Below, piece by piece: positions 16,880 through 17,065 of a DNA stretch of 64,000 nt. Positions within the stretch are counted from its first letter, which is position 1; every line of letters begins with the position of its first letter. The position numbers and the translations under genes were made by a program. The notes under the pieces were generated by a model. The model did not search any database, had not been told where the DNA came from, and worked only from the letters and a program-made list of their open reading frames with translations. Source of the stretch: an uncultured bacterium (GTDB taxonomy: Bacteria; Chlamydiota; Chlamydiia; Chlamydiales; Rhabdochlamydiaceae); NCBI GenBank assembly GCA_964461105.1, contig CAYWSY010000001.1:8714-72713 (forward strand), given 5' to 3'.

Positions 16880-17065
16880 CAACCTTAGAGCCTATCTCAG
16901 TAAAATTTTTCGTCGATTTTCGCGATTATTTTGGCGAATTTTCTCTTTTTTTTAAGGGGGCAATATCAACATACGTATATTGCCCCCTTAAAAAAAAGAG
17001 AAAATTCGCCAAAAGAACGCAAAAATCGACTGAAACTTTTTATACAGACTACTGGGATAGGCTCT
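16880..17065. repeat. PE-A copy 2: imperfect palindromic element
   Basis: Arms are complementary around the loop CAACATACGT (16967-16976). Shares the outer-arm module TCGTCGATTTTCG(G/C)GATTATTTTGG with copy 1. Lies between divergent pknD and trpS. Confidence 0.9.

Follow-up and report, generated by a model that had tools for sequence, protein, structure and literature searches.

Recurrent in-place inversion of the loop of PE-A, a palindromic repeat of Rhabdochlamydiaceae genomes

Correia elements (CREE) of Neisseria and ERIC sequences are bacterial MITEs with full-length palindromy. Linear replicons, parvoviruses among them, have terminal hairpins in flip and flop forms; these result from hairpin transfer at the DNA ends, which inverts the whole terminal palindrome and produces the two forms at about 1:1. 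Site-specific inversion switches of the Hin, Gin and Fim type turn over segments hundreds of bp long, cross over at fixed sites and have their recombinase gene nearby or at the site itself. Inversion by template switching follows a model that is said to go back to Ripley. Several lines of published work bear on the last of these. In yeast genes, replication template switching leads to inversion of the spacer between inverted repeats and to homogenisation of their arms, an outcome that is both recurrent and reversible, and the pairing inverted repeats in the yeast survey measured about 9 bp or more (PMC8604942). Template-switch loop inversions have been described in rRNA and microRNA hairpins, bacterial rRNA included (PMC8794818). 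Hairpin-associated small inversions are likewise found in plastid non-coding DNA (reviewed in PMC12371153), where flip-flop is ongoing (PMC12928735).

Here we describe PE-A, a non-coding palindromic repeat that behaves as a MITE-like element in many genomes of the Rhabdochlamydiaceae (environmental chlamydiae). Two copies lie in the window, by which we mean the whole 64,000-nucleotide stretch of DNA that was analysed, and their central loops are inverted relative to one another. The account we favour, and hold to be probable, is that the loop and a part of the stem are sometimes inverted by the element upon itself, through template switching or recombination between the inner arms, and that the change is passive and neutral.

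Structure and surroundings of PE-A

PE-A elements are intergenic and 120-180 bp in size. At least 13 copies are present in the genome that contains the window (G000, a 2.01-Mb draft in 154 contigs with 44% G+C and a short-read-like assembly), and more than 80 in a complete relative, the single-contig 2.2-Mb genome G023. Variable terminal inverted repeats lie on the outside of the element and a conserved 120-bp core on the inside; this core is kept across genera, and several different terminal repeats are combined with it. Within the core, the A arm reads GATTATTTTGG where the B arm reads GTTCTTTTGr, forming an asymmetric internal loop that gives the element its polarity. The centre consists of a near-perfect inner stem of ~31 bp, measured from the loop to the A/B mark, and a loop of ~10 nt.

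Copy 1 (5444-5615, + strand) is of the flip form and belongs to the subfamily with TAGACCTCTTGCGTAAyTAAGG termini. Its 81-nt arms are 85% complementary and lie 10 nt apart. The A-arm mark GATTATTTTGG is at 5482-5492 (+), and the same mark is found on one arm only in every complete genomic copy. The loop, ACGTATGTTG, occupies 5525-5534 (+) in the flip orientation and is followed by the B-arm mark TCAAAAGAAC at 5568-5577 (+), which is the reverse complement of GTTCTTTTGA. The element adjoins a fumarase gene (4052-5446), and the TAG at 5444-5446 is at once the start of the element and the fumarase stop codon. The insertion of copy 1 abuts or supplies the end of the fumarase reading frame at this point (window 5444-5446).

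Copy 2 (16887-17065, + strand) is of the flop form, belongs to the AGAGCCTATCyCAGTA...AAA terminus subfamily and has as neighbours trpS (17191-18192) on one side and, on the other, the 5' end of a minus-strand Ser/Thr kinase gene (14067-16874). Its A-arm mark GATTATTTTGG, read from the window sequence, is at 16924-16934 (+) and its B-arm mark CCAAAAGAAC, the reverse complement of GTTCTTTTGG, at 17009-17018 (+). The two halves of its inner inverted repeat, 16926-16966 (+) on the left and 16977-17017 (+) on the right, pair as 41-nt arms that are 98% complementary and 10 nt apart. Between them, at 16967-16976 (+), lies the loop CAACATACGT in the flop orientation, which reverse-complements the loop of copy 1 exactly.

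Overall, the two window copies are ~75% identical, and their terminal repeats differ (TAGACCTCTTGCGTAA... in one, AGAGCCTATCTCAGTAAAA... in the other). Folded as single-stranded DNA, copies 1 and 2 form hairpins of -70.7 and -70.1 kcal/mol respectively (z = -17.7 and -19.0 relative to dinucleotide shuffles). Our analysis agrees with the first-pass annotation of this DNA on two points of description. Firstly, that annotation held that the left and right arms can be told apart and have the same orientation in both copies: GATTATTTTGG is indeed on the left and GTTCTTTTGr on the right in each. The left arm of both copies reads ...TTCGTCGATTTTCGsGATTATTTTGG..., and the right arm, when reverse-complemented, ...TTCwGTCGATTTTyGsGTTCTTTTGr...; the A and B arms being unlike, a small asymmetric internal loop results when PE-A folds. 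Secondly, the 10-nt loops were said to be mutually inverted, and they are exact reverse complements. Read in the same direction they agree at only 2 of 10 positions, so this is a true inversion rather than a palindromic loop common to both copies. In copy 2, any exchange must fall inside the stem of the inner repeat (16926-16966 with 16977-17017).

Two further features of the window copies concern their outer parts. The right terminus of copy 2 (window 17040-17058) is ~8 bases longer than the left, and its other strand reads CCAGTAGTCTGTAT, which resembles CTAGTAGTCTGTAAAC, the terminus of a second palindrome of this genome, PE-C. The resemblance suggests that PE-A and PE-C may have a terminal sequence in common and perhaps a transposase too. 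The motif CGATTTTCG occurs twice per PE-A arm in the family consensus, giving a symmetric set of four per element (e.g. window 5472-5480 and 16913-16921), with the inner repeat degenerate in both window copies. This arrangement looks like a putative protein-binding array.

Short duplications flank many of the elements. In G023, 3-bp direct repeats (TTA or TAA) adjoin GAGACTGTC..., and in the genome of the window ATT, AAT and TTT duplications flank the AGACC...GGTCT of PE-A, with a boundary that is ambiguous by 1 base; copy 2 itself has no clear target-site duplication. Pairs of PE-A termini lying 0.4-3 kb apart in G023 bracket no transposase of PE-A's own, and no autonomous partner was found among them. 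Two 1.9-kb terminus pairs of G023 were considered as autonomous PE-A and rejected, as what lies inside PE-A in each is another element, bounded by ends and a target duplication that are not those of PE-A.

PE-A is also a site of insertion. A 1.8-kb insert with ends GGCCTGGTTCAAAG... interrupts PE-A at two places in G023, G023:1018474-1020390 (L219-L220) and G023:1522448-1524363 (L245), and at both it codes for the same 508-aa protein, for which Pfam gave no match. The two interrupted PE-A copies differ in subfamily; in each, the insert occupies the arm motif GGCCGATTTTCG and is accompanied by a duplication of 8-10 bp. It is possibly an insertion sequence that targets PE-A. In G000, another repeated element, whose ends read CTGyGTCCACTTCAAAGTTAGAGAAATTTC, interrupts two separate PE-A copies outside the window (C53:13725-13782 with C68:1-60, and C84:8100-8159 with C7:1-55), each time at the TATA that borders the loop. 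These insertions share their relative position, and 4 of 4 junctions are contig ends. Such positions suggest that other elements land preferentially at the tips of PE-A hairpins. Finally, solitary PE-A-type termini (TAGACCTCTTGCrTAA...) occur without a core, often just 3' of TTATTAG-like gene ends, at window 36538-36560 (G000 C1:45251) and at C11:1949, C18:22174, C23:15460, C27:12735 and C123:1745. They may be leftovers of deleted copies, or other elements with the same terminus.

Arm polarity and the extent of the inverted tract

One A arm and one B arm are present in every complete PE-A copy of this genome (the right arm of the C64 copy is B by the strict arm-mark pattern), and 128/139 elements among loci from many Rhabdochlamydiaceae genomes are A/B. 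G023 has 73 A/B, 4 A/A and 4 B/B elements, and 3 A/A elements were found in other genomes. The alternative that the arm marks are random noise fails on these counts, and their conservation means that copy 2 is not merely an inversion of the whole element. The inversion was scored with every copy oriented so that its A arm is on the left.

PE-C, of ~170 bp and with the 6-nt loop CTATGA, provides a control palindrome from the same genome (window 49189-49358 and 53082-53257, plus 13 other G000 copies). The PE-C loop is tied to the same arm in 15/15 copies, and between its two window copies the entire element, with its loop, is inverted. The inner stem of PE-C is 88% complementary, against 98% for PE-A copy 2, and this contrast fits the idea that a near-perfect stem is required for flipping.

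Many PE-A copies have a stem mismatch 5 or 7 bp from the loop (e.g. left TCATAT, right TAATAT), which allows the loop and its surroundings to be followed together. Of 33 informative flip copies, 31 have the mismatch in one orientation, and all four informative flop copies have it in the other (4/4; Fisher p = 0.0002, a value that is indicative only since the copies are related and not independent). Each flop element was also set against the flip copy closest to it. In all 25 cases a mismatch 5-7 bp from the loop had moved to the other arm, whereas in all 7 cases a mark at 24-31 bp had stayed on the same arm. In one pair, from G061, the loop-adjacent mismatch is apparently unmoved, as judged from the left half of the element only. 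Swapped near the loop and kept far from it, these positions delimit a tract that comprises the loop and a variable part of the ~31-bp stem and ends before the A/B marks. The placing of the exchange points inside the stem by the first-pass annotation is borne out by these mismatches (25/25 swapped) and marks (7/7 kept). Furthermore, the variable end points argue against a site-specific enzyme.

The inversion happens in place at a fixed locus. In G023, the loci at 606,933 and 1,956,444 belong to the two copies of a paralogous 1.1-kb segment (97.2% identical); their flanks are the same and their arms identical, and the sole difference between the two elements is ACGCAAGTTG in place of CAACTTGCGT. 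The insertion is therefore older than the duplication, and the loop was inverted later at one of the two sites.

The arms themselves also bear traces of exchange. In the A/A and B/B elements of G023 (four of each) the outer junction marks are still asymmetric, and these elements are the result of arm homogenisation, a sister outcome of template switching. Separately, a chimeric PE-A at G023:1726760 (L255) combines a left terminus and arm of the GAGACTGTCG subfamily with a right terminus and arm of the GAACCTATCTCAG subfamily, which indicates recombination between PE-A copies.

Recurrence and origin of the two forms

Ten copies in this genome are flip (loop ACGyATGTTG) and three are flop, namely copy 2, C33:14020 and C52:3763. 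The unique A/B elements of other genomes comprise 83 flip, 20 flop and 16 unclear cases. An exact-pattern census of 129 family genomes returned 271 flip matches in 39 genomes and 98 flop matches in 27 genomes and 13 genera, the latter figure being a slight overcount because some A/A elements (G092 C23, C46, C69; G107) fall in both sets; reversed control patterns gave 0 matches in the same 129 genomes. Tabulating loop orientation against arm polarity thus gave the outcome that the first-pass annotation had predicted, with both forms in many genomes.

Draft assemblies call for some caution here, as a loop between perfect repeats longer than the assembler's word size could be given an arbitrary orientation. 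Several contigs of this genome do end inside PE-A, which means that the hairpins disturbed assembly and that the orientations at the window loci are given as assembled. As the source of the two forms, however, an assembly artefact is very improbable. The arm mark lies ~33 nt from the loop, and words of at least 36 bases should link the two; orientation is phylogenetically clustered and non-random; ~20 copies of one subfamily share their orientation in the single-contig 2.2-Mb G023; and in the same assembly as the window PE-C orientation is consistent in 15/15 copies. For genome reconstruction the practical point is that PE-A hairpins break short-read assemblies of chlamydial MAGs.

The distribution of the two forms shows both inheritance and repeated change. 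In a tree of 158 elements built from the arms alone, with the loop and 10 nt on each side removed, orientation changes at least 22 times, against 29-42 (mean 35) with shuffled labels, although a 90-column alignment resolves such a tree poorly, which inflates the count of 22. Orientation is accordingly partly inherited, yet has changed many times. A more conservative count of recurrence comes from clusters with three or fewer arm differences, six of which contain both forms. Within single genomes, pairs with an identical 32-nt inner arm and exact reverse-complement loops occur in G044 (two separate pairs), G017, G069 and G020, and both forms coexist within three G023 subfamilies and within two from this genome. 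The ~20 near-identical flop copies of G023, with loop CGACAAAAGT, demonstrate that the flop form can amplify. Both forms are heritable and able to amplify, and the flip event recurs.

Could the flip and flop lineages instead have split once, in a single ancient inversion, and spread apart, with flipping now over? The clustering of orientation on the arm tree (22 changes against 29-42) would suit such a history, as would the amplification of a flop subfamily to ~20 copies in G023 and the enrichment of flop among elements with CTATCyCAGTAAAA-type termini (26/36, against 17/122 for other termini), which is largely the work of one amplified subfamily. The six tight clusters and the G023 and G000 subfamilies with both forms speak against it, the end points vary between cases, and the paralogous pair of G023, with shared flanks and a difference in the loop alone, contradicts it directly. 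We consider a single inversion highly unlikely.

Partial inheritance does bear on the window. Copies 1 and 2 come from different subfamilies, as their ~75% identity and unlike termini show, and their loop difference was therefore probably inherited from different source copies and does not reflect a recent flip at either locus. Within this genome, copy 2 is most closely related to C33:14020, another flop copy; their subfamily also includes a flip copy, C7:805. Given C33:14020 and the flop-rich terminus type, the flop state of copy 2 most likely came from its source copy and was not acquired at 16,967. The site upstream of trpS contains no PE-A element in the relatives compared, which include the same-genus genomes G001 and G002. 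No record encoding the same TrpRS or the same fumarase was found, and with it no orthologous locus of a close strain; metagenome scans with flank words of the window loci gave no matches.

The most likely mechanism, as we infer it from these patterns, is template switching. A nascent strand would copy one inner arm, switch to the complementary arm on the other template, copy the loop backwards and then switch back within the second inner arm, leaving the centre inverted and the outer arms unmoved. Reciprocal recombination between the ~31-bp inner arms would be an alternative route to the same product. An exact inverted centre, swapped mismatches, variable ends and homogenised arms together match template switching between the arms of an inverted repeat. 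The first-pass annotation had gone further, taking the inverted loop as a sign that the element extrudes as a hairpin in vivo. That step goes beyond the pattern: template switching at a fork needs just the inverted repeat. Fork direction in G023 is neither for nor against the model: flip elements are co-directional in 18 cases and opposed in 19, flop elements in 14 and 14, with no strand bias.

A related possibility is gene conversion, in which a break or gap in one PE-A is repaired from another or a sister copy in antiparallel alignment, pasting in the opposite centre. The element is nearly self-complementary, so that an antiparallel register is possible; there are 13 to more than 80 copies per genome; the chimeric element at G023 1,726,760 shows that sequence is exchanged between copies; and A/A and B/B elements exist. 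A foreign donor, however, would often carry variants of its own, whereas in the G023 pair and several same-genome pairs the flop loop reverse-complements the flip loop of its own subfamily exactly and the arms are identical, as self-templating predicts. Template switching, inner-arm recombination and antiparallel gene conversion give the same product and are not separable here, but we regard conversion from another copy as unlikely, if less so than the other alternatives to self-templated inversion.

Self-templated inversion also appears to be passive and neutral. A programmed switch would require a recombinase or structure-specific enzyme that inverts the tip to produce two forms that function differently, after the manner of phase variation. 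In its favour, the strongly conserved A/B asymmetry could serve recognition by a protein, and both forms persist in many genomes. Nevertheless, the inverted tract of 10 to ~25 bp is far below what synapsis by known invertases needs, a duplex of this length being far too short for those of the Hin, Gin and Fim type, and the end points vary. No recombinase gene flanks either window copy, the neighbours being fumarase, Ser/Thr kinase and TrpRS. Scans for promoters and terminators gave no signal centred on the loop, and a scan of the window at Rfam gathering thresholds returned two tRNAs only and nothing at PE-A. Nothing suggests that flip and flop differ in function, and a programmed switch is among the least probable of the readings considered. 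Equally improbable is a variant in which the A/B internal loop and the tip would be recognition features of a structure-specific enzyme of the host or of an element, with loop orientation selecting the hairpin strand that is used and flip and flop functionally distinct. If it held, the choice of strand could serve mobilisation, or the landing of elements that insert at fixed PE-A positions.

The finding has consequences for how palindromic repeats are interpreted. Differences between their loops should not be counted as many independent substitutions, nor do they constitute evidence for an RNA function or a genetic switch.

Comparison with described systems

As a repeat, PE-A is closest to the Correia/CREE and ERIC elements. 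Like them it is small, non-coding, multicopy and intergenic, with terminal inverted repeats, short A/T-rich target duplications and the capacity to form long hairpins. It differs from them in that no autonomous partner with the same termini was found and in that its 120-bp core is joined to several terminal repeats.

Two other kinds of inverting DNA offer less of a parallel. The terminal hairpins of linear replicons resemble PE-A in having two sequence isomers that are mutual reverse complements, and the first-pass annotation had drawn the analogy with viral flip/flop. It does not hold: PE-A is internal to the chromosome, its outer marks are not inverted, and flip and flop occur at ~3:1 (271:98) and not at 1:1. 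Unlike a Hin, Gin or Fim switch, PE-A has fumarase, kinase and TrpRS genes as neighbours, variable end points and a tract of 10 to ~25 bp.

The likeness to small hairpin-associated inversions of organelle genomes, also proposed in that annotation, is apt, as the footprint in plastids is the same. There, too, a short loop inverts between stem-forming repeats, and the changes are homoplasious, recurrent and apparently neutral. The plastid inversions differ in their setting, which is that of high-copy organelle genomes with active recombination, and their sites are not mobile elements.

The closest correspondence is with spacer inversion by template switching, with which PE-A has in common an exact reverse-complement spacer, swapped mismatches within the tract, homogenised arms, and recurrence with reversal. 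The PE-A inner stem (41 nt at 98% in copy 2, ~31 bp in the family) exceeds the minimum pairing length of ~9 bp in the yeast survey. In most published cases the site is present once and its loop or spacer measures 2-8 nt, whereas the PE-A palindrome is mobile, occurs in many copies and has a 10-nt loop on an inner stem of 31 bp. The repeat family is newly described, but the mutational process by which we explain its inversions is a known one, and nothing here points to a new biological system. With hundreds of PE-A copies in at least 13 genera, the family offers a well-replicated natural case of that process, in which the built-in polarity marks make the extent of each inverted tract readable and the multicopy substrate allows one family to record dozens of events across at least 13 genera.
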